Source: a virus. Taken from it: a stretch of 26,969 nucleotides of DNA. The notes beneath the pieces were generated by a model. That model was not told where the DNA came from, ran no database searches, and saw nothing but the letters and a program-made list of their open reading frames with translations. The DNA lies in UHGV virus genome UHGV-2016197, one strand, 5' to 3'. Position numbers and translations under genes: made by a program. Positions 1,942 through 25,961 of the stretch are shown one piece after another (within the stretch, counting starts at the first letter, position 1; every line of letters starts with the position of its first letter).

Positions 1942-1968
1942 TAGTGCCGGGATACCCCGGCACTTTTT
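1942..1968 (+). terminator. Rho-independent terminator of the acyltransferase gene, shared with the convergent tailspike 3' end
   Basis: Stem GTGCCGG (1944-1950) / CCGGCAC (1957-1963), loop GATACC, then TTTTTAAT. The tailspike stop codon (1967-1969) lies inside the T tract. Confidence 0.55.
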
Positions 1969-3913
1969 AATCTATTTCGTAAGTGACAGTGATTATCACC
2001 TCTGCATTATTACCCAAAACATTTCGATATATATTCATATTACCTGATAATGTAGTTGCTCCAGTAAGAGTTATATAACTACTATTTGCATCAACCCTTG
2101 GAAGTAAAGCGGTAACTGCTGTTGTTAAATTATTATAGTAGCCTGTACTTCCAACATATGCAGCTTTATTGCTTGATACATATGGTAACCCTCCAATTCT
2201 GAAACCATCTCCTGACCCAATTAAAGTTATACCAAGGTGACATGTTGCCGTTATGATATTGCCACTCCTGACATAATTTCCTTTCTGCTGATAATATGTG
2301 GCATTACCACCTACAGTCGGAATCCAAACTCCAGTTTCTATATCACCACATGACCAGTCTTCTGCTGTTGTTAGTTTTCCAGTAACAATAAATTTACTTC
2401 CCCCACCAGAATTATAAGGAACAAAAATTGGATTTATTCTTGCATAAGTGTTACCGGTCTGCTCATTAAGATCATTTCTACCAATAAGAACCTGACCATT
2501 TTCAAAGTTTGATATCTGGCAGTCAGTTACACTCCAGCCCCTTAATTTTACATCAGCATCCATGACGCCAATAAGCTTGCCAGCGTTACCAATTTTTTCT
2601 TTATGCATATTTACATACACATTTCTTACCGTAACAGACTGAGGGAACAGATAATTAGCAGGATTGGTTTTATCACTTAAAACAGATATTACCCAAGGTC
2701 TGTATTGAGTACTTACTTCACAATAAAATCCATCAATAAGTGTTCCAGATGCCGCTGGTCCAAGTAGTATTCCACCTGTAGAGTGATGCGCACTACCTCC
2801 AATTACTCTCCCCTTAACGCAGTTAATATAGGCAAAATATCCTAAATCTTGATTGTCATAGGCTGACATAGCACAGTCTCTAACTGTTACTCGCGAATTT
2901 CCTCCATCATAAGCTGAGCCATCAGTTTTCTTACCAACTATTGATATAAAGTTACCAATAGCAACTCGACTATAAAAAGTTTTTTTATAACACCCCTCAA
3001 TTAAAATATCCCAGTTTTCAAACTGAGCATATATATCATAAGAGCTGGCGTTCCCATAATCTATGAAATCACAATATCTTATTTTCGGCGTATAAACGGC
3101 ACTTTTTATCTTTATACCACCTAATGCTCTCTCCCCACCTGTGAATCTAATGCCAGTAACGGTGTAATCGCCTTGATAGAAATTATCTGCGGTAGGATTA
3201 TTTTCGTCAGAATCATCACCCAATATAATAGCAAATTCACTCCCTGAATAATTAATTGTAGCCCCCTTATTTGAATATATAGTTACAGGCCTTATAAACT
3301 CCAAAGAATTACTTATTAGATACTCTCCATAAGGAAAAAAAATCTCAACTGGTGGTGAGTACTTAGGTCTGGAGTTTACGTAATTCATAATATTGATTAC
3401 ACCAACATCATCATTCGTGCCATCACCTTTAAACCCAAAGTCTTTCGCGCTCACAAAATCTGCATTTTTATCGTGCTGTGCTCTCTCGATTGCCATAGAG
3501 AGAGGTTGTTTTACACGAACAACTGAATCATCAACTAATAATGGCCCATTTTCAGATAGCAATCTTTCCTGAAATTGATCAGGATCATACTTCAGCACAT
3601 TAGGAAAATAGAACTGCTGCGAACCATACGCATCATAAACAGCCATAGAATGACCTTGCACAGTTACGAATTTGGCAATCTGCCCGTTATATACCGGATA
3701 TCCAGCAGCGTTAATGATGATTGGCTGTGCAACAGAAACGTGAGAGCCGTCTTCGTTTTCCACATAAACCTGAATCTGGTTTTCAGGATTTACAGGGTCA
3801 GTGTCAATTTTACCGATATAAATTTTGCCATTGGCTACGGCTTTAAAAGAACGCGCCATAGTGAAAAGTTGCGAAGGCATCGATACGATCACATTGGCTG
3901 TAATGTCTGTCAT
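1967..3913 (-). CDS. Tailspike protein (P22 gp9-type head-binding N-terminus, divergent receptor-binding domain)
   Basis: N-terminal ~110 aa ([11 protein letters not shown]...[20 protein letters not shown]...[13 protein letters not shown]...VLKYDPDQF) match the P22 gp9 head-binding domain from memory; remainder has beta-helix-like repetitive composition. ATG verified at 3913. Confidence 0.9.
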
Positions 3914-3977
3914 TTAATTTGCTCCAGATACAAGGAATCGCCGCAGCATGGCTACGGTGAGTATTTGTTTGCTTTTT

Positions 3978-4000
3978 GCACTACACTTTTTGTGTAGTGC
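3978..4000. repeat. Perfect 9-bp inverted repeat with 5-nt loop in the tailspike leader
   Basis: gcactacac (3978-3986) ttttt gtgtagtgc (3992-4000); not followed by a U tract on either strand, so operator or RNA hairpin rather than terminator. Confidence 0.4.
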
Positions 4001-4047
4001 TATCTCTCAAGGCCATAGCCGCTGAGTAGCTACGGTGAATTTTGGGC

Positions 4048-4074
4048 ATAAAAAAACCCAGCCGAAGCTGGGTC
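4048..4074 (-). terminator. Rho-independent terminator (minus strand)
   Basis: Minus-strand RNA CCCAGC-UUCG-GCUGGG followed by seven U (plus-strand A run 4050-4056). Confidence 0.6.
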
Positions 4075-4121
4075 GTTGCGTTGGTTATCTGTCAGTAGTT
4101 ATGTACTGGCTGAAGGATTTG

Positions 4122-4147
4122 TACAAAAACCCACCTGACGGTGGGTT
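4122..4147 (-). terminator. Rho-independent terminator immediately downstream of the 322-aa gene (minus strand)
   Basis: Stem AACCCACC (4128-4135) / GGTGGGTT (4140-4147), 4-nt loop, U-rich tail on the minus strand (UUUUUGU). Confidence 0.6.
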
Positions 4148-4153
4148 TCATAA

Positions 4154-5122
4154 TTAGATTTCTGGTTTCATTCTTCCAAAAACCTTTTCTATTCCTTTTT
4201 CGTATTCTTCTCTTGTCTCACTCATCGCTGCGACCCCAAGAAGCTTACCGATATGCTGACGCAAAGCCTTGACACCAATTTCAGAAAGGAACAGATGCAA
4301 CTTATCAGATTGTTTTCCGTTCTCGTCTCGGCTGGCTCGAATCTGTTCAAGGATTTTACCTTTACTCTTTGCTAGCGGGGTGTATATCTGCATGTTGGTT
4401 AGCTGCCCAAAACGAATAGGCCGTCCTTTCTCTGGCCTATTCAGGCCGTACAGTCGATACCACTCCTCGTATAGCTCATCTGGAAATTCCTTTTCATATT
4501 GACGAGCTTCTTCACGAACAAACGCTTTGAACTCGTCAATGACAGCCTGAACTTCTGGACGATAACCAGCAAGCGCATACGCAACCCCCTTAATTCCCGC
4601 CTTAGCGGAGGCATTAATAAGTCTCTGTGCTGCGGCGGCTGCCTTTAACCGTGATTGTGGTAGATCGTCATTATCTTTGGCTTCTATTAGTGCCCTACCA
4701 ATATCAACAATTGCTGTAATGTCATAACCTAACGCTTGATGAACGGTTTTAGACTTCGAAGTAAGTTGAAATTTATAGGGATTTTCCATTTTTCGCTGCA
4801 ATTCTAGATCTCGGTATTTGCTCATATACTGAGCGCCAAGTAGTTGATCTAAATCCCTGGCATGTTCACCAATCCCTAGCAACTGAGATAATCCAGTTTT
4901 CGTAACAACGACAGTTTTCGACTCGTCATCCAGTACATAACATTCAGCATCAATGCCAAAATCATCTAAAAAGTTACCACGATGAGTTGCCCTGAGAATC
5001 TTACTTTTCCATCTTGCAGCAGCTGCTTTCTTTGCTATTTCAGAACGCTGCTCTTTAGTCAGCGACTTTGCGCGAGCGATCCCGCCCTTAGCTTTCCCTT
5101 CACTACTTTTCTTTTCTGTCAT
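4154..5122 (-). CDS. Hypothetical accessory protein, P63C-domain-like, with basic N-terminal putative nucleic-acid-binding segment; function unknown
   Basis: 322-aa ORF; ATG verified at 5122 with AAGGTG Shine-Dalgarno. N-terminus KGGIARAKSLTKEQRSEIAKKAAAARW followed by ATHRGNFLDDFGIDAECYVLDDESKTVV resembles the pattern I recall for P63C-domain phage proteins. Own promoter and two terminators; not part of the P22 core virion gene set. Confidence 0.7.
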   Translation of the reverse strand: MTEKKSSEGKAKGGIARAKSLTKEQRSEIAKKAAAARWKSKILRATHRGNFLDDFGIDAECYVLDDESKTVVVTKTGLSQLLGIGEHARDLDQLLGAQYMSKYRDLELQRKMENPYKFQLTSKSKTVHQALGYDITAIVDIGRALIEAKDNDDLPQSRLKAAAAAQRLINASAKAGIKGVAYALAGYRPEVQAVIDEFKAFVREEARQYEKEFPDELYEEWYRLYGLNRPEKGRPIRFGQLTNMQIYTPLAKSKGKILEQIRASRDENGKQSDKLHLFLSEIGVKALRQHIGKLLGVAAMSETREEYEKGIEKVFGRMKPEI

Positions 5123-5277
5123 AATGCAAGCACCTTGTTGTGATATATGCTTGCATTATATACACTGTACACACATACAAGCAAGCATAAAACCAAAACA
5201 AAATGCTTGCATTACAACCGCGCTACTCCAACTACACATTATCATCTGGTATCCTGCACAAAACTAAGGAGGTTGGT
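5123..5277. promoter_or_regulatory. Divergent control region with four copies of a 9-10 bp operator-like motif (ATGCTTGCAT and its complement) and a perfect TATAAT for the minus-strand gene
   Basis: Motif copies at 5124-5132, 5147-5156, 5181-5188 and 5203-5212 in alternating orientation, forming two inverted-repeat pairs with 14-15 bp spacers. Minus-strand TATAAT at 5155-5160 abuts one copy; AAGGAGG Shine-Dalgarno at 5266-5272 serves the plus-strand ORF. Confidence 0.5.
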
Positions 5278-5606
5278 GTGCTTGAATGGTTTCTGTTGGC
5301 TGCATTAGTCGTTTCTGGTTTGGTGTATGAGTATCGAATGCACTCTCTAACAAAAAAATAGGAATTCTAGAAAACGAATATTGTGCTCTCAAATCCTCAC
5401 TGGAACGTGAGCAAGGGGACTTAAAAATCTCTCTGTCTAGCATTGAGCGTTCTATAGAGAGCTTAGAGGATAAGGTTGATCGTATAAAGAATGAGGATAT
5501 TCATGATATTAAGGACGACATATCCTTCTTAAAATCTTGGTTGAAAAATGTTGGGAAAATTGCCACATCAACACGAGATAAGCTCAATCCATCCATGGAT
5601 GACTAA
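5278..5606 (+). CDS. Small membrane-anchor ORF (27 codons, GTG start) that reaches a 83-codon coiled-coil-like downstream frame only through a -1 shift at an A7 tract; possible recoded gene, phase-variable gene or frameshifted pseudogene
   Basis: Strong SD AAGGAGG + 5 nt + GTG (5278). Frame 0 reads (M)LEWFLLAALVVSGLVYEYRMHSLTKK then TAG at 5359-5361. Heptamer A_AAA_AAA at 5352-5358; -1 frame continues IGILENEYCALKSSLEREQGDLKISLSSIERSIESLEDKVDRIKNEDIHDIKDDISFLKSWLKNVGKIATSTRDKLNPSMDD to TAA at 5604-5606 and has no ATG/GTG/TTG start of its own. Confidence 0.3.
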
Positions 5607-7766
5607 TTACTCCTGTGCCATTCCGCTTAGCGATGCCACAATTCCAGCTCTTGCTAAACGCTGGAACTCTTCGTTTCCTAGTGCCTCGCGTATTGCTTTT
5701 ACGGCGGCCTTATTTGCCATAAATCTGCGTTCCGCTGCCGCTAATGCTTCTTTGCTTCCGCCTGCTCTTACTGCTTTAGTGGCTTCCTGAACTGCTTTCT
5801 CTATCGCATACCGACCACTACGTGTGGTGGCAATTTTAGATACAGCGCCTTTTAACCCAGCGCCAACTAAAGCACCTGCGGCAGCGCCTGCAATGCCTCC
5901 TCCAGCGCCACCAACAATGGCACCTGATGTTGAGTTGGCAATTGCATTTAACACTGTTGATGTGACGTTGGATAAACCAGCATCCAGATCGCGTAGTACA
6001 TTGGCAGTTCTCCCTGTTCTTTCAATATACTGCTGAGGTTTCACTGCTGCTCTTGCAAGAGTGCCATACGCATCAGCAATTCTTCCAAGCTCTGAGGAAT
6101 ATCTGCTAATGGCTTTTACATTTTGTGGAGTGAGTATCTCTGCGATATGGTTAATTCCTGCTGCATCAGCTTTGCCACCACGTACACCATGCGAGATGGC
6201 ATCCTGCAACATTGATGATATAGCAGGAACACGCTCTGATTCTGGCAGCGCGCGGATCATAGAATGGAATCCAGCAGGACCATTAAGACCTTTAGCTGAC
6301 GATGATTGAAGGGATTTTACTCCATTCGTAATCAGTGCATCTGTTGCCAAATCACGCCCGAAAACAGACTCTGCACTCTCTTGTGCTGATAACCTCGCTT
6401 TAGACAGATCATTAGCTTTTTGCCAGTCATCAAGAAATCCGCCGTTTTCCGCCATTGTGCGCATATCATCAGTAATTGCCCGGCGTATTTCCCCTGCTCT
6501 CCTTGCCGCATTTGCCTCTCCGCTACGCTTATATTTTTGCTCCGCATCAGCAAATTTCGCTCTCCATGCTTTCATGCCATCAAATGTTACTCCACCTTGA
6601 TTGTTTGCCTGAACAAACTGTTTCATTTCAGGAGTAAGCGGTATGCCGGCAGATCGCTCTGCCTGAATAACGGCATTACCATTTAGCATTCTTGCTTTTT
6701 GATTTGGCATTGTTGACCGTACGTCATCCCATGCCGCGCGCTCGGCATCCTTCATCTGATCAAGATTTTGAAGAATCCTTTGTTTTATAGCCGCACTTTT
6801 TTCTGATGCCGTTCCAGATGCGGCCCCAAATTCATCAAGGTTTCGACTTAACTTTGATGATATTTCGTTAAATGCTGCCTGATGGGCGTCCTGAACAATT
6901 CCTGGTGTTGATGCCAATGCGCCTTCGGCTTGTGCAATTCCACGACTTCCAGATCGCATTCCTGGTGTTAATGCGTTTATATCAATTCCAGCAGACTCAG
7001 CCGCTTTTGCTACATCTTCGGACACATTAGCGGCCTGACTGGCAATTGACTGACGCCCAGCACCTGACTTTGCCATCCTGGAAACATCATTAGCAGAATT
7101 CAGTGCTGCACCACCAAGAGCCTGTGAAACCCTTGGCGCAATAACGCGCCCGACACCTGAAAGAACGCCTTGAGCACCAATATTGATACCACCGTTAATG
7201 GCAGCATTTTGTGCAAAGTCGCCCTCCTGATTTGCAGCATCAGCAAGAGAACCTGCAATCATGTTTCCTGCGGAACCGATATCTCCAGCGAGCTTTGCTG
7301 TCGCTCCAGCAGCTTTTGCCGCTGTGCCAATTGGCAGGAGATACCCACCAAATGTTTCACCGGCTTGCGCCCAACGGTCTGTCGGTCGATCGACAGGGCG
7401 ATAAACATCATCCAAAACCTTGGGGCCACCAAGCCCATGGCTGATTGCATTAATCAGACTTGCGCCACCCTGCAATACGTCAAATGGTATGTTTACCAGA
7501 CCACGACCAGCCTGTTCTGCAATTTGCCCTGCACTTTGACCACCTGTGAGCCAATCGCCAGCTTGTTGCATCAATGATGGTTCTTCTTTCTGCTGCTGAT
7601 GCGGAGGGTATGCTGCATAAAACTGATCTCTTGCTTCAGCCCATTTGTCACCAGCCTTAGGGGCAACAACCTCATCAAAATATTGCGCTTGAGCCTGTGC
7701 TTTCTGTTCTTCAGTTAACGCCTGATACTGTGGAGAGGCGATAACATCTTTCCATGCTTTAGCCAT
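5607..7766 (-). CDS. Ejection (pilot) protein, P22 gp16-like
   Basis: 719-aa Ala/Gly/Gln-rich protein at the gp16 position, last gene of the head-tail operon; ATG verified at 7766, overlapping the upstream stop (TAATG). Confidence 0.75.
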
Positions 7767-9154
7767 TAATCACCCCATAGTGAAGAAAAGTTACTGCTGG
7801 CTGCTGGCTGTGATACCTGTGCAGGTTGAGATTGCTGCCGCTGAGATTTACCAACATTAACGTTATATTGTTGGTTGTAATTGTTGGTGTATTCCTGAAT
7901 CTCACGAATCGACTGCTGCATAGCCTCCGGGCTTGAATAGTCAACCTGCGGCATCCCCTGAAAATACATCTTCGCTTCTGCAACGGTGTTAATACCACTG
8001 GCACCCATGTCCCTTGCTGCCGCCACACCCTGTTTCTGCATTCTGCCCTGAATACGTTGTGCTGAGTTATATAACTGGCGCTGCTCTTTTCCCGTTAATC
8101 GGCTGCGAACATCAGCACCAATTGCTGGATTACCTGCACCGCCTGTCATTCCTGTCATGAAATCGAGAGCAGAAGCGTCTGCATTTGCGATCGCGTCGAT
8201 ATCCTTCTTCATGGCATAGTTTTGTGCTGATGCAGACGATGTTGCCGGCGCAGCGATTGAACTGGCAGGAACGCGAACCATATTCCCCTCGTTGTCGATG
8301 CCTTCGTAGAACGCATTAGCCCCAGCGCCGTGAAGTTTCCCTCCTACCGTTACAGTTCTGCCATCTGATAACTGAACTGTACGCTCATCATTCCCAGCGG
8401 TTCCTCTTGTTGACGCTCGCTGCATTGCCAAATCCTGCCCGCGTCGCGCAGTAGAAGCAGATAAGTCCTGACCGCGCATCGTGATGTTCTGACCTCGTGC
8501 TGTTAGCGCCTCTCCAGCCTGATTGCTGCGGATTGTCTCTGCCAGCCTGCCTCGGTCAATTTCACGACCAGCCATCTTGTCCTGAACATTGAAGTAATCA
8601 ATCGGACCAAGAGCAGCCATCCCAAGGTGATCAACAAACTCACCAAATCCTGAAGGATTCTGCTGATACATCTGAGCAACGCTGTTAGGGTCAACACCGA
8701 CGCGAGTCAGTTCCTTGGCGTTGTTTTGCAGCCATGATTGCATTGCTTCTGGAGACGATGACGCAAGGCGTGCGCCAGCCGCTAAGGTGCCGATAGAATT
8801 ACGCTGGTCTTCATCAATGAATCCCATGCCTTTACGAACGGATTCAATCTGGTCTGGATATTGAGTAGCCAACTGACGCAAAGCACCGCGATCACCAGAC
8901 GCATAAGCATTAGCGTACGCCTGCTGAAATTCTTTCTGCCGCTGAGCCTGCTTCTCCTGCTGAAACACCCCCGCAATACCTGAAAGGCCTTGCAAAGCAG
9001 TCAGCCCAACATTGTTAGCGCCTGAACGCTCAATATCATTGTTCTGCCTGATAAGCTGAAGCGTATTGCCGATGTCATTTACGCTCGGAGCGTTTGAGTT
9101 GACGCCGCCGATACCAGCCAACAATCCGCCATTTGATCCTTGCCAAGTAGCCAT
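7766..9154 (-). CDS. Ejection protein, P22 gp20-like
   Basis: 462 aa, conserved position between gp7 and gp16 homologues; ATG verified at 9154. Confidence 0.75.
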
Positions 9155-9163
9155 GATTACCCC

Positions 9164-9856
9164 TTAAAACAACGAGCCAAGCAATCCGATACCAGCACCA
9201 ATGCCAGCGCCCCAAGGTGTTGATGTTCCCAAAAGGCTGGCAAGACCTGCACCGGCAATCGCACCAGACGTGCCACCGCTAATTGCAGTCTGAAGACTTG
9301 ATGGTTTATTGGCATTAGCAGCGGCAAGAGCTGCGCTTTGCTGTGCAATGCTGCTCATGTTGTTGGCGTACGTCTGCCCGGCGTTTGCCTGACCTTGCAG
9401 AGCACCAAGCCCAACGTTTGCCAGATTGTTGTAATTGCTCATCTGGTTTGATAACCAAGACTGACCGAGAGTCGGCGCGATCGTAGCCAGTTGATTGCTT
9501 GTGGCTGTCGAACCAAGTCCTCCCGTAGCCTCCGCAGCAGCAAGACTCTGGTAACGAGCCTGACCTGCAAGGTCTTTATACTGCTGAGAGTTGTAATACT
9601 GATTAAGTGCCTGCCCCTGACCTTCCAAACTGGAAAGGTTCTGAAGCTGGTTAACATACTGCTCCGCAAGAGGCGTGAACGGAGCAAGGTTTTTCATGAT
9701 CGTCTGCCACTGCTGATTTTGCAGGTCTGCGGCATACTTCTGAGCTTCTGCGGCATACTTTGCACTTTTATCAGAACTGCCACCTTTCCCGCCTTTTTCA
9801 TGGCAATAAGGTTCCTCGCCGCGCAGTTTTCTGCCCAGCTTAAATGCATATAACAT
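9164..9856 (-). CDS. Ejection protein, P22 gp7-like
   Basis: 230 aa; N-terminus MLYAFKLGRKLRGEEP...KGGKGGSSDKS and Gly/Ala-rich C-terminus ending GLLGSLF match P22 gp7 from memory; ATG verified at 9856. Confidence 0.8.
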   Translation of the reverse strand: MLYAFKLGRKLRGEEPYCHEKGGKGGSSDKSAKYAAEAQKYAADLQNQQWQTIMKNLAPFTPLAEQYVNQLQNLSSLEGQGQALNQYYNSQQYKDLAGQARYQSLAAAEATGGLGSTATSNQLATIAPTLGQSWLSNQMSNYNNLANVGLGALQGQANAGQTYANNMSSIAQQSAALAAANANKPSSLQTAISGGTSGAIAGAGLASLLGTSTPWGAGIGAGIGLLGSLF

Positions 9857-20581: not shown

Positions 20582-20845
20582 CTACTTCACTTTTGCTTTT
20601 GCTTCCGCTCGCTTACGCCGGCGCTCTTCTTTCCTCTCGGCTTTTGCCATGTCCATGAATGCCTGCATGATCGAGTTCCGCATCATGTAGCTAACAAAGT
20701 GATGATTGACACAGCCGTTTAGGCGCAGCTGCTCGCCAAACTCATCCACCGAGGCCAATGCTTCCATCATGCCCTTCTCGCCTTTCATGAACTCTGAGAA
20801 GTCGCGCCCCGCTCTGGAGGCGCATTCAATGACACGATCACTCAT
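20582..20845 (-). CDS. Hypothetical 87-aa protein with Lys/Arg/Glu-rich C-terminal tail
   Basis: ATG verified at 20845 overlapping the KilA-N stop (ATGA), so translationally coupled; no family recognised. Confidence 0.55.
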   Translation of the reverse strand: MSDRVIECASRAGRDFSEFMKGEKGMMEALASVDEFGEQLRLNGCVNHHFVSYMMRNSIMQAFMDMAKAERKEERRRKRAEAKAKVK

Positions 20846-21339
20846 CCCGGAAGCCCGGGGATCGTAATCTGCAGCTGGTTAGCCAGGGAGTTAATCTCAG
20901 CGACCAACACTGGCTTCGTATAGCGCCATGCCGCCAGCCCTTGTCCGCAGAAACTCGCCATGTCTTTCTTCTGGTCAAACTCATGACATTTCATGTTGAG
21001 CTGCGCACTTAAGCTGTTGCGATGCTGAAGTTCTCCGGTGAAGTAGTCATCGAGGACTTTATAGGCCGCGTACTTGAACCCGGGGTTTAACCAAGCCGCA
21101 TAATCGTAAGCAACAAACTTCCCGCCATATGTTCCACCGTGTACACCGCGCTCAGTAAAAACCACAGATTCGTGGTTTTTCTCCAGCTCGGCTAAGAACT
21201 CTTTGGTCTGCTTGTTTCGCAGGTAGTGGTAAGGCGATTCAGATTCACTTTTACCACTGGCTTTCCACATATCAGTGAGGCAGATCATGCCATCTTCACC
21301 GATACGAATTGGTTGATTGAAGAGGGTTAATGATTTCAT
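20842..21339 (-). CDS. KilA-N domain protein (moron)
   Basis: 165 aa; N-terminal region resembles the KilA-N (APSES-like) DNA-binding domain from memory; ATG verified at 21339; flanked upstream by two terminators. Confidence 0.7.
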   Translation of the reverse strand: MKSLTLFNQPIRIGEDGMICLTDMWKASGKSESESPYHYLRNKQTKEFLAELEKNHESVVFTERGVHGGTYGGKFVAYDYAAWLNPGFKYAAYKVLDDYFTGELQHRNSLSAQLNMKCHEFDQKKDMASFCGQGLAAWRYTKPVLVAEINSLANQLQITIPGLPG

Positions 21340-24952: not shown

Positions 24953-25239
24953 GGTTTAATCTTCCCCTCCTTCAGCAGTATCGCCTGCGTCCTGATCACG
25001 CCTTCGAGGTGGTAAAGTCTGGCGTCTTTGTTGTCGAGGTTATGGGTGCGTCGGTCGATCTCCGCGTGGCAGTCGCTACAAGCCCATGCGCCGATCAGGT
25101 CGTCAGGTTTCATTCCCGTTCCGCAAATTCCAGCCATCCGGTAATGTGCCAGAACTGTAGTTTCAGGATTGCCATTGCATACGCCGTAAATACGTACCTG
25201 ACATTCTCTGCCGCGTGCTTCTTTGCGTAGATTGGCCAT
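24949..25239 (-). CDS. DUF1364 (YbcO-like) putative nuclease
   Basis: 96 aa; ARGRECQVRIYGVCNGNPETTVLAH ... CSDCHAEIDRRTH resembles DLP12 YbcO from memory; ATG verified at 25239. Confidence 0.75.
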   Translation of the reverse strand: MANLRKEARGRECQVRIYGVCNGNPETTVLAHYRMAGICGTGMKPDDLIGAWACSDCHAEIDRRTHNLDNKDARLYHLEGVIRTQAILLKEGKIKP

Positions 25240-25961
25240 TAAGCAGCCTCCCCTGTTACTTTCAGCATTCCGTTATCGAGCAGCTTTCTGGTCAGCCACT
25301 GTTGACCACGCCCGGTGATTTTTGTGGTGAACGATATCTGTATTCCGTGATTTGTGTTGACTGCTGTTTCTTTCACTGTGAAATAGCCGCGCTCCATATA
25401 TTCCTGCATTGGCACATTGCGCCGGGAACCTGAAGCAATAAGGATTTTGTGATCGCGCATCCACGCAAACAGTTTGTTTGGACCAATACCGACAACCTTT
25501 GCAAAGTTTCCAATCAAAATTCCGCTGGCTTCGCCAACGCGATCGGCAAACTCAACTTTAGGTGCGGCAATTGCGAGCTGGTTTTCCAGTTGCATTTTCT
25601 GCTCAGCAAGATCAGCAGCAAGGCGCAACGCTTCTGGTAGCGTTTTGGGGATATTAACCGCAGCTTCTTCAAGCTCTCGCCAACGGTCAACAAGACGAGC
25701 GGTGAATTCCGGCGACAACTGAGCGACGACAATAATGCTGTCTCGCTTACCTTGTTCGCCCTCAAAAACGTAAGCCTCTACGCCACGAAGTAATCCTAAG
25801 TTATTGATTTTTTCGAAAACCACCATTGGGGGATTTCGGATCACACCTCGAGCCGCCAGTCGTTCAATAGATTGTTTCACCTTGTCATGACGACTTCCCA
25901 CCAACTCAGCGATTTCAATGCTTGTCATTTTGATGGCATTGCCATTTATTAACTCATTCAT
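25239..25961 (-). CDS. Phage regulatory protein, Rha-like N-terminus with KilAC (ANT) C-terminal domain; antirepressor-like
   Basis: 240 aa; N-terminal MTSIEIAELVGSRHDKV (Rha-type) and C-terminal AAPKVEFADRV...LFAWMRDHKIL...EYMERGYFTVKE (KilAC-type); ATG verified at 25961. Confidence 0.75.
   Translation of the reverse strand: MNELINGNAIKMTSIEIAELVGSRHDKVKQSIERLAARGVIRNPPMVVFEKINNLGLLRGVEAYVFEGEQGKRDSIIVVAQLSPEFTARLVDRWRELEEAAVNIPKTLPEALRLAADLAEQKMQLENQLAIAAPKVEFADRVGEASGILIGNFAKVVGIGPNKLFAWMRDHKILIASGSRRNVPMQEYMERGYFTVKETAVNTNHGIQISFTTKITGRGQQWLTRKLLDNGMLKVTGEAA

Follow-up and report, generated by a model that had tools for sequence, protein, structure and literature searches.

The 26,969-nucleotide (nt) viral genome UHGV-2016197, referred to here at its full length as the window, contains at positions 4122–5609 an accessory locus with two divergent genes: a minus-strand gene for a 322-residue protein of the P63C family and, on the plus strand, a copy of the HK620 gene hkcB that is split over two reading frames. 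The P63C gene is preceded by four copies of a conserved 10-bp site that overlap its own promoter and start codon, and the same arrangement recurs upstream of family members in distant bacterial groups. The account that we favour, at a probability of roughly 50%, is that the P63C protein, whose N-terminal fold may be Bro-N-like, is an autoregulated, sequence-specific DNA-binding protein. An earlier note on this DNA had taken the locus for a self-contained two-gene module and the most plausible place for an undescribed exclusion, defence or counter-defence function; it is instead a known mosaic region, not a new defence system, in which the P63C gene stands beside a broken hkcB. Both genes, like the region itself, have already been catalogued, and it is the operator layout, the link to transposons and the cassette-exchange slot that are undescribed as far as we found.

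Four conserved sites overlap the promoter of the P63C gene

The P63C gene (4154–5122, minus strand) and the divergent cargo slot occupied here by hkcB have in common a 155-bp control region (5123–5277), in which ATGCAAGCAT or its complement occurs four times. Site 1 (ATGCTTGCAT, 5203–5212) is the outer site on the hkcB side. Site 2 (AAGCAAGCAT, 5179–5188) has one mismatch, and its complement supplies the −35 hexamer TTGCTT (5184–5179) of a promoter directed towards the P63C gene. Site 3 (ATGCTTGCAT, 5147–5156) overlaps the −10 hexamer TATAAT (5160–5155, minus strand) by 2 nt, and site 4 (ATGCAAGCAC, 5124–5133) abuts the ATG of the P63C gene (5122–5120). The gene had been credited with a promoter of its own, and TTGCTT-18-TATAAT is indeed present; a generic promoter scan missed it because its −35 hexamer matches at only three of six positions. 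Exact copies of the 8-mer TGCAAGCA occur three times in the 27-kb window, all within 5125–5211, and a fourth with one mismatch lies at 5180–5187.

Conservation was assessed in 80 loci encoding P63C family members, one genome per species, whose proteins are 42–76% identical to that of the window and whose hosts include Acidobacteriota, Myxococcota, Alpha-, Beta-, Gamma- and Deltaproteobacteria, Firmicutes-type metagenome-assembled genomes and Chloroflexi. Immediately upstream of the gene, the window and 54 of the 80 loci carry a + − + − quadruplet of sites with a spacing of about 23/31/24 bp; counted with the window, repeated and conserved sites overlap the promoter and the start codon of the gene itself in 55 of 81 sources. 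In these sources the core GCAAGCA hardly varies at any of the four sites, against protein identities of only 43–52%. The layout incorporates a sigma-70 promoter: site 2 provides the −35 hexamer TTGCAT, the spacer measures 17–18 bp in 46 of the 55 sources, and a −10-like hexamer (at least four of six matches to TATAAT in 42 of 55) overlaps the first two bases of site 3.

The protein begins with a basic motif, GGxARAxxLTxExRxxIAxKAAxARW (aa 8–42), and two kinds of variant bear on its relation to the sites. A subtype with 52% identity (as in P0088; L103:960–1175 and L117:3075–3292) has a near-identical control region and first ~25 codons, which take in the start of the basic motif, and then diverges; this places a mosaic joint in the coding sequence, inside that motif or shortly behind it. 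A P63C-like gene with 26% identity that adjoins hkcB (L104:8204–9330) has an altered N-terminal motif, GGKARAAKMTAEQRKESSRKAVAAKK, without the RW, and its upstream repeats differ as well (ATGCACGT...ACGTGCA, built on TGCACGT); it looks like a specificity variant of the same regulator–operator design. The P63C-family protein is the only protein that accompanies the four sites in every context, and from this together with the two kinds of variant we infer an autoregulated DNA-binding protein.

In this model the P63C protein would bind the four ATGCAAGCAT sites in its own control region. Site 2 forms the −35 hexamer, site 3 borders on the −10 hexamer and the predicted transcription start, and site 4 is adjacent to the start codon, so that protein bound at sites 2–4 would occlude the −35 hexamer, the transcription start and the start codon and repress the gene's own promoter. 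The DNA-reading part would be the basic motif, possibly together with the Bro-N-like α/β domain (aa 43–150), and the helical P63C domain might serve multimerisation or partner binding. The protein may also modulate the divergent slot beside gene 16. The earlier note held that no function could be assigned, a position that can be improved upon, as the four-site control region points to an autoregulated DNA-binding protein. The very large P63C family thereby gains a concrete hypothesis with a defined 10-bp site.

The control region also has a pronounced secondary structure. Positions 5113–5222 form an imperfect dyad of ~100 nt with an RNA fold of −49 kcal/mol (z −5.97), and none of 200 shuffled sequences was as stable. 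It is conceivable, if quite improbable, that the repeats act as nucleic-acid structure, as hairpins in read-through RNA that hide the ribosome-binding site and start codon of the P63C gene, as a cruciform or as a recombination site, and that the activity of the P63C protein is unrelated to them, for example in defence, anti-defence or mobile-element maintenance. Such a reading would account for the long hairpin, for the position of site 4 against the start codon with the Shine–Dalgarno sequence in the loop between sites 3 and 4, and for a family of 3209 clusters and ~60 invariant columns, which is more conservation than many simple repressors show. The arms of the sites are, however, invariant rather than covarying, and the flanking positions of would-be partners agree with each other no more frequently than those of arms that are not partners, which favours sequence-specific recognition over mere base pairing. 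In addition, the conserved −10 hexamer predicts a transcription start within site 3, and a transcript of the gene that began there would be without the 5′ arm; the variant N-terminal motif of L104 travels with variant repeats; and the P63C protein has no match in PADLOC or NCBIfam and no recognised catalytic motif. Rfam matches on 3800–5800 were sub-threshold eukaryotic microRNA-precursor matches on the dyad, which we rejected as hairpin-shape artefacts, and Rfam found no sar RNA in that interval.

Architecture and distribution of the P63C protein

The earlier note's description of a 322-residue minus-strand protein with a basic N-terminus and a P63C core was confirmed. The open reading frame matches Pfam P63C (PF10546) at aa 199–286 with an E-value of 6.8e-14 and 52.7 bits, against a cut-off of 26.1, and matches phrog_2384, a family of unknown function, over its full length (aa 6–321, E 1.9e-104). 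There are 1682 homologues at E ≤ 1e-3. The protein is RefSeq entry WP_000136767.1 ("P63C domain-containing protein"), it occurs identically in 605 blocks of the assembly collection, and DNA of the locus was matched in 244 of 5426 complete E. coli genomes; with hkcB already named in HK620, the locus cannot be called undescribed. A profile search of 1.84 billion representatives placed 3209 clusters (50% identity) in the family at E ≤ 1e-3. Many of these clusters start at profile position ~40 and have no basic motif, which confirms that the motif is a separable module. We found no function study of any P63C protein in the searchable literature.

Behind the basic motif the protein consists of an α/β domain (aa 43–150) and a helical region (aa 156–315) that contains the Pfam P63C segment, and the family alignment has ~60 invariant columns. 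An AlphaFold (AF2) model built from a 31-sequence alignment reached moderate confidence (predicted local distance difference test, pLDDT, 71), with low-confidence basic helices at aa 1–40, an α/β domain at pLDDT ~80–90 and an all-helical region at aa 156–315. Weak fold resemblances, below significance throughout, are mostly to phage proteins of the Bro-N, antirepressor-N, KilA and "repressor domain" kinds. We recognised no catalytic motif in the protein, and NCBIfam gave no meaningful match for it or for HkcB. Two enzymatic assignments were considered and rejected. The conserved pattern ALRxH...Y suggested a tyrosine recombinase, but its R and H vary and no recombinase fold was found; the pattern YD...DxxK suggested a PD-(D/E)xK nuclease, but the window protein has R in place of K and the spacing is non-canonical.

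These fold resemblances are also what would be expected if the protein were mainly an antirepressor-like switch factor that acts through protein contacts, as an analogue of P22 Ant or of Bro-N/KilA/Rha proteins, and has a repressor or a host factor as its binding partner. In that case the role of the four sites would be confined to keeping P63C expression tightly off in the lysogen. In relatives the P63C gene directly adjoins the mnt-arc-ant immunity I genes, elsewhere in the Enterobacterales its cassette adjoins CI-like repressor genes or a Bro-N-like gene, and tight multi-operator control is typical for products harmful to lysogeny. We nevertheless regard such a role as unlikely. A comparison with the Ant protein of vB_EcoP-611R6 (611R6) by hhalign gave a probability of 2.4%, so that no relation to P22-type Ant is detectable, and many prophages have both a P63C gene and ant. 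Moreover, the family is equally conserved in IS1-family transposons with no phage repressor nearby, which speaks for a function that does not depend on one particular phage repressor.

Several observations weigh against the autoregulated DNA-binding protein that we prefer. The canonical quadruplet is absent from 26 of the 80 loci, many of which form an acidobacterial subgroup with other repeats. With a spacing of about 23/31/24 bp the four sites do not all lie on one helical face, and the strong hairpins that they form could have a structural role. A PDB sequence search with the family profile and a Foldseek search of the PDB with the model each returned zero matches and lend no support to DNA binding. 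A Pfam search of aa 1–192 detected no family, no DNA-binding domain and no Bro-N, KilA-N, AntA or P22_AR_N domain even at E ≤ 10, the fold resemblances are below significance, and the pLDDT of 71 is only moderate, with low confidence for the N-terminal motif. Towards hkcB there is no good −10 hexamer at the symmetric position (one of six matches), which makes control of the divergent gene the weakest step of the model. Finally, the A7 run that breaks hkcB, described below, could be a sequencing error.

P63C genes are regular passengers of IS1-family transposons

In 29 fetched loci the P63C-family gene is preceded by a divergent gene for an IS1-family transposase (NCBIfam transpos_IS1, E 5.8e-17; Pfam DDE_Tnp_IS1), and the four sites sit between the two genes. 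Both terminal inverted repeats, GGTAGTGkSTCAGTTTGAA, and perfect 8-bp direct repeats were found at 22 loci, where they delimit elements of 2303–4699 bp, and homology across loci ends at the ends of the transposon unit. The paired inverted repeats and 8-bp target duplications identify these units as bona fide transposons of the IS1 family that regularly carry the P63C-family gene as a passenger or accessory. Examples among L011–L082, which come from many phyla, are L013:4973–7275, L023:4240–7280 and L062:2946–7644. In the window, a search for the inverted repeat allowing up to three mismatches found none, and no transposase adjoins the cassette. We found no description of P63C-carrying IS1-family transposons in the searchable literature. 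The P63C family connects prophage accessory regions with these passenger-carrying transposons.

A small protein of 58–98 residues (with one exception of 269) is encoded after the P63C-family gene, usually convergently, in 22 loci, for example L013:6969–7208, L079:3933–4223 and L010:4296–4592. Its C-terminus corresponds to the basic motif of P63C aa 8–42 (hhalign 98.3%, E 1.6e-14). It has no relative in Pfam, NCBIfam or the PDB, where a profile search returned one chance match. In L010 the motif appears by eye to be fused to a HicB-like N-terminal part, which hints at a DNA-binding module. In L010 and L058 the upstream divergent gene encodes, instead of the IS1-family transposase, a protein of 406–429 residues with an apparent SWIM-type zinc-finger motif, CxCPD...CKH, also seen by eye.

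The mostly acidobacterial subgroup (L022, L026, L032, L037, L040, L047, L049, L056 and L081) has no TGCAAGCA quadruplet and carries the repeats ATACTTGCTCGGGCA ... TCGGGCAAGTAT instead. In those members with an adjacent transposase (L022, L037, L040 and L047), the transposase has an extra N-terminal cysteine-rich, zinc-finger-like segment.

A portable cassette and an exchange slot beside gene 16

The earlier note had recommended a comparison with the same interval in related prophages. When run, it revealed a portable P63C cassette of 1,156 bp on the minus strand (4125–5280, boundaries by blastn against L085–L091) that comprises control region, open reading frame and terminator, and a series of gene swaps beside it. 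Among prophages encoding the identical P63C protein, the cassette is 99% identical by blastn in settings with differing flanks. Downstream of it lie mnt-arc-ant, or a ClpP-like gene with mnt-arc, or, as in the window, the tailspike gene directly. In some relatives (L086/L089:4276–4812) the gene between the cassette and mnt encodes a 178-residue protein of the ClpP family (CLP_protease). In other Enterobacterales the cassette occupies various prophage accessory positions, for example adjoining CI-like repressor genes or a Bro-N-like gene.

Upstream of the cassette there are five different divergent genes, all with the same Shine–Dalgarno sequence and four with the same GTG as hkcB, and prophages that differ in the cargo gene have an identical control region as far as its start codon. 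The five products are HkcB, with one hydrophobic helix and a coiled coil; a 75-residue protein with three hydrophobic segments; a 62-residue protein with two; a 140-residue soluble protein; and a SieA-family protein (PF26849), which is found in L091 with the junction a few bases upstream of its start codon. Four of the five are small membrane proteins. The slot beside gene 16 is polymorphic, a conclusion supported by these comparisons: sieA, hkcB and other genes, mostly for membrane proteins, are interchangeable in it. The PF26849 match (SIEA) in L091 also upholds the view that this is the sieA position, and the location of hkcB in an interchangeable slot that holds sieA makes HkcB a positional candidate for superinfection exclusion. 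With its conserved expression signal, the slot looks like a point of cassette exchange, and it is a rational place to seek new superinfection-exclusion proteins, HkcB included.

A segment of ~30 nt that contains the Shine–Dalgarno sequence and the GTG (GGTATCCTGC.CAAAACTAAGGAGGTTGGTGTG, window 5247–5280) is the recombination junction. It is present also at ~2840–2860 in L085, L086, L088 and L091 and at L002:3313–3346. It is common to hkcB–hkcC in HK620 and to P63C cassettes with other slot genes, and the coding sequences diverge right after the start.

The proposal of a single, self-contained system for exclusion, defence or counter-defence, with hkcB and the P63C gene as its two members, is in our view very improbable. 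The two genes diverge around one common control region, hkcB is found beside three P63C subtypes, and the slot is occupied by sieA in L091, all of which would suit such a unit. Yet the identical P63C protein and cassette pair with five slot genes, and the neighbours of hkcB vary: among 31 contigs of the IMG/VR database, hkcB adjoins this P63C type in six, the 52%-identity subtype in four, the 26%-identity P63C-like gene in one, hkcC in nine and none of these in 11. The five partners of the cassette and the varied neighbours of hkcB leave the self-contained module unsupported. In addition, the P63C family is present outside the Enterobacterales without any HkcB, whereas the 26 HkcB clusters are all enterobacterial; hkcB is frameshifted in the window; and neither protein has a meaningful match to a defence model.

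A broader scenario, which we put forward tentatively and as more doubtful than not, joins the two settings of the family. P63C proteins would be dedicated regulators of widespread, undescribed IS1-family transposons (2.3–4.7 kb) that P22-like prophages captured together with the control region, as a fixed platform of promoter and ribosome-binding site for swapped exclusion-type membrane genes (hkcB, sieA and others). In the interval that separates the regulator gene from the transposase gene, the proteins would bind four invariant ATGCAAGCAT sites, and in the prophages the swaps would fall at or just upstream of the start codon.

hkcB is frameshifted in the window

The plus-strand gene is hkcB of HK620 (AAK28903.1). 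It had been described as a single open reading frame with one transmembrane helix followed by a coiled coil, but it lies in two frames here. The 5′ part (5278–5361) starts with GTG at 5278, encodes an N-terminal hydrophobic helix, MLEWFLLAALVVSGLVY (Kyte–Doolittle mean 1.94 for aa 1–17), and ends after 27 codons at a premature TAG (5359–5361). The 3′ part (5358–5606), in the −1 frame relative to the first, has 82 codons, contains the coiled-coil region and ends in SMDD*. Alignment with HK620 and 611R6 places the frameshift in a homopolymer at 5352–5358, which has seven A residues (A7) in place of the eight (A8) of relatives; the window accordingly has no intact hkcB frame.

Once joined, the frames match phrog_5962 over 108 of 109 positions (2–109; E 1.9e-61), which places the product in the HkcB family, and are 99% identical to HkcB clusters P0121–P0127. 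The family is a narrow orphan: its 26 clusters occur in E. coli, Salmonella and Klebsiella and are annotated as hypothetical throughout. Pfam gave weak coiled-coil-type matches only and no SIEA (PF26849) match, so HkcB is not a member of the SieA family by sequence. In our model hkcB would be one of the interchangeable genes of the sieA slot and its product a candidate inner-membrane superinfection-exclusion protein, inactivated in the window, or leaky at best, through the one-base deletion in the A run.

There is a serious possibility, short of an even chance, that the frameshift is not biological and stems from a sequencing or assembly error in the homopolymer, or that the A7 allele is expressed through −1 ribosomal or transcriptional slippage, and that HkcB is functional. 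An A run is the commonest place for such errors, and the rest of hkcB is 97–100% identical to intact copies. A −1 shift on A_AAA_AAA, followed by the in-frame TAG (5349–5361), would give exactly the wild-type ...LTKKIGIL..., and the frameshifted gene could be leaky via low-level slippage. On the other side, an A7-type gene call is present in another assembly (P0134; P0136 has the same length and coverage), which may point to a recurrent real variant. Exact-pattern scans of IMG/VR found A8, in frame, in 31 of 31 copies and A7 in none; A7 therefore does not qualify as a conserved recoding signal.

The interval corresponds to a reduced ant moron

The late operon of the window, a P22-like (Lederbergvirus) E. 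coli prophage or phage, runs on the minus strand, and the interval 4122–5609, situated between the homologues of genes 16 and 9, is the variable region already known as the "ant moron". According to Villafane, Casjens et al. 2008 (PMC2629481), the ant moron is the one hyper-variable, non-structural insertion in the P22-like morphogenetic cluster between these genes and contains sieA, hkcC, orf59a, mnt, arc and ant in P22, in agreement with the earlier placement of a variable, non-structural interval between the ejection and tailspike genes. The flanking genes were identified in the window, and the gene set between them varies among relatives. On the left border lies the gene for a gene-16-type ejection (DNA transfer) protein of 719 residues (5607–7766, minus strand), whose product is labelled "DNA transfer protein" in 611R6, HK620 and RefSeq relatives; the gp20-type (7766–9154) and gp7 (9164–9856) ejection-protein genes follow on the same strand. 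On the right border, also on the minus strand, is a tailspike gene with a P22 head-binding domain (1967–3913; Pfam Head_binding, E 6.7e-66).

Two intrinsic terminators had been assigned to the P63C gene. Both exist, but they are not private to it: mapped onto the HK620 annotation, they correspond to "tMNT" and "tANT". The first is a hairpin, AAACCCACC-TGAC-GGTGGGTTT (4127–4148), whose inverted repeat directly follows the P63C stop codon and whose equivalent in relatives lies between the P63C gene and a convergent mnt gene. The second lies at 4055–4074 on the minus strand. By this correspondence both are remnants of immunity I genes, with tANT left by a deleted mnt-arc-ant segment. The ant moron is in a reduced state here, with mnt-arc-ant deleted as in HK620 and two independent accessory cassettes left.

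Other accessory genes lie outside the interval. Beyond the tailspike gene, a plus-strand gene (754–1929) encodes a 391-residue acyltransferase (Acyl_transf_3) and probably serves lysogenic conversion through O-antigen modification; its position resembles that of the O-antigen modification gene of HK620. Two minus-strand genes of this prophage belong to the KilA-N/Rha antirepressor-like class, one with KilA-N and ORF11CD3 domains (165 residues, 20842–21339) between the lysis and packaging genes and one with Rha and ANT domains (240 residues, 25239–25961) in the nin region.

Comparison with known systems

Neither protein resembles a known defence component, and the proposed defence function was not borne out. 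In PADLOC-DB 2.0 the P63C protein matched no family (0) and HkcB matched only DpdH (E 0.002, 16 bits), which we discarded as a compositional coiled-coil match.

The closest counterpart of the locus as a whole is the P22 ant moron (PMC2629481), which occupies the same place between homologues of genes 16 and 9, is non-structural and is highly mosaic. The window keeps remnants of the mnt and ant terminators, and relatives carry sieA in the slot; the window itself lacks mnt, arc, ant and sieA. The P22 and epsilon34 moron genes named in the text of PMC2629481 do not include the P63C cassette. For the plus-strand gene, the counterpart is HK620 hkcB, a homologue of epsilon34 gene 14, with ~98–99% identity once the frames are joined and the same position and orientation by gene 16. 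The HK620 gene is intact, in contrast to the A7 frameshift here, and its neighbour is hkcC, where the window has the P63C cassette.

For the P63C protein the nearest relatives in design are regulators that were reportedly described by Iyer, Koonin and Aravind in 2002, in which an N-terminal module of Bro-N/KilA-N type is combined with a C-terminal module such as P63C. The window protein has the C-terminal P63C domain above threshold and an N-terminal domain that weakly resembles Bro-N. It differs in having no Bro-N or KilA-N sequence match and in its extra N-terminal basic motif.

The layout of the control region in the transposons recalls Tn3-family elements, whose TnpR protein acts at res between the divergent tnpA and tnpR genes. 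In both cases an element-encoded DNA-binding protein would have several sites in the short interval that separates its gene from a divergent transposase gene, in positions suited to repressing both. Unlike TnpR, the P63C protein showed no serine- or tyrosine-recombinase fold or motif; its partner transposase belongs to the IS1 family, and no transposase is present beside the cassette in the window.

HkcB, finally, may be compared with P22 SieA. SieA is a multi-pass membrane protein, whereas HkcB has one hydrophobic helix and a coiled coil and no sequence similarity to it. The two nevertheless have the same slot, as seen in L091, and a predicted membrane anchor in common, and hkcB adjoins the genes of the targets proposed for SieA, gp16 and gp20 (Leavitt et al. 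2024, PMC10883804).

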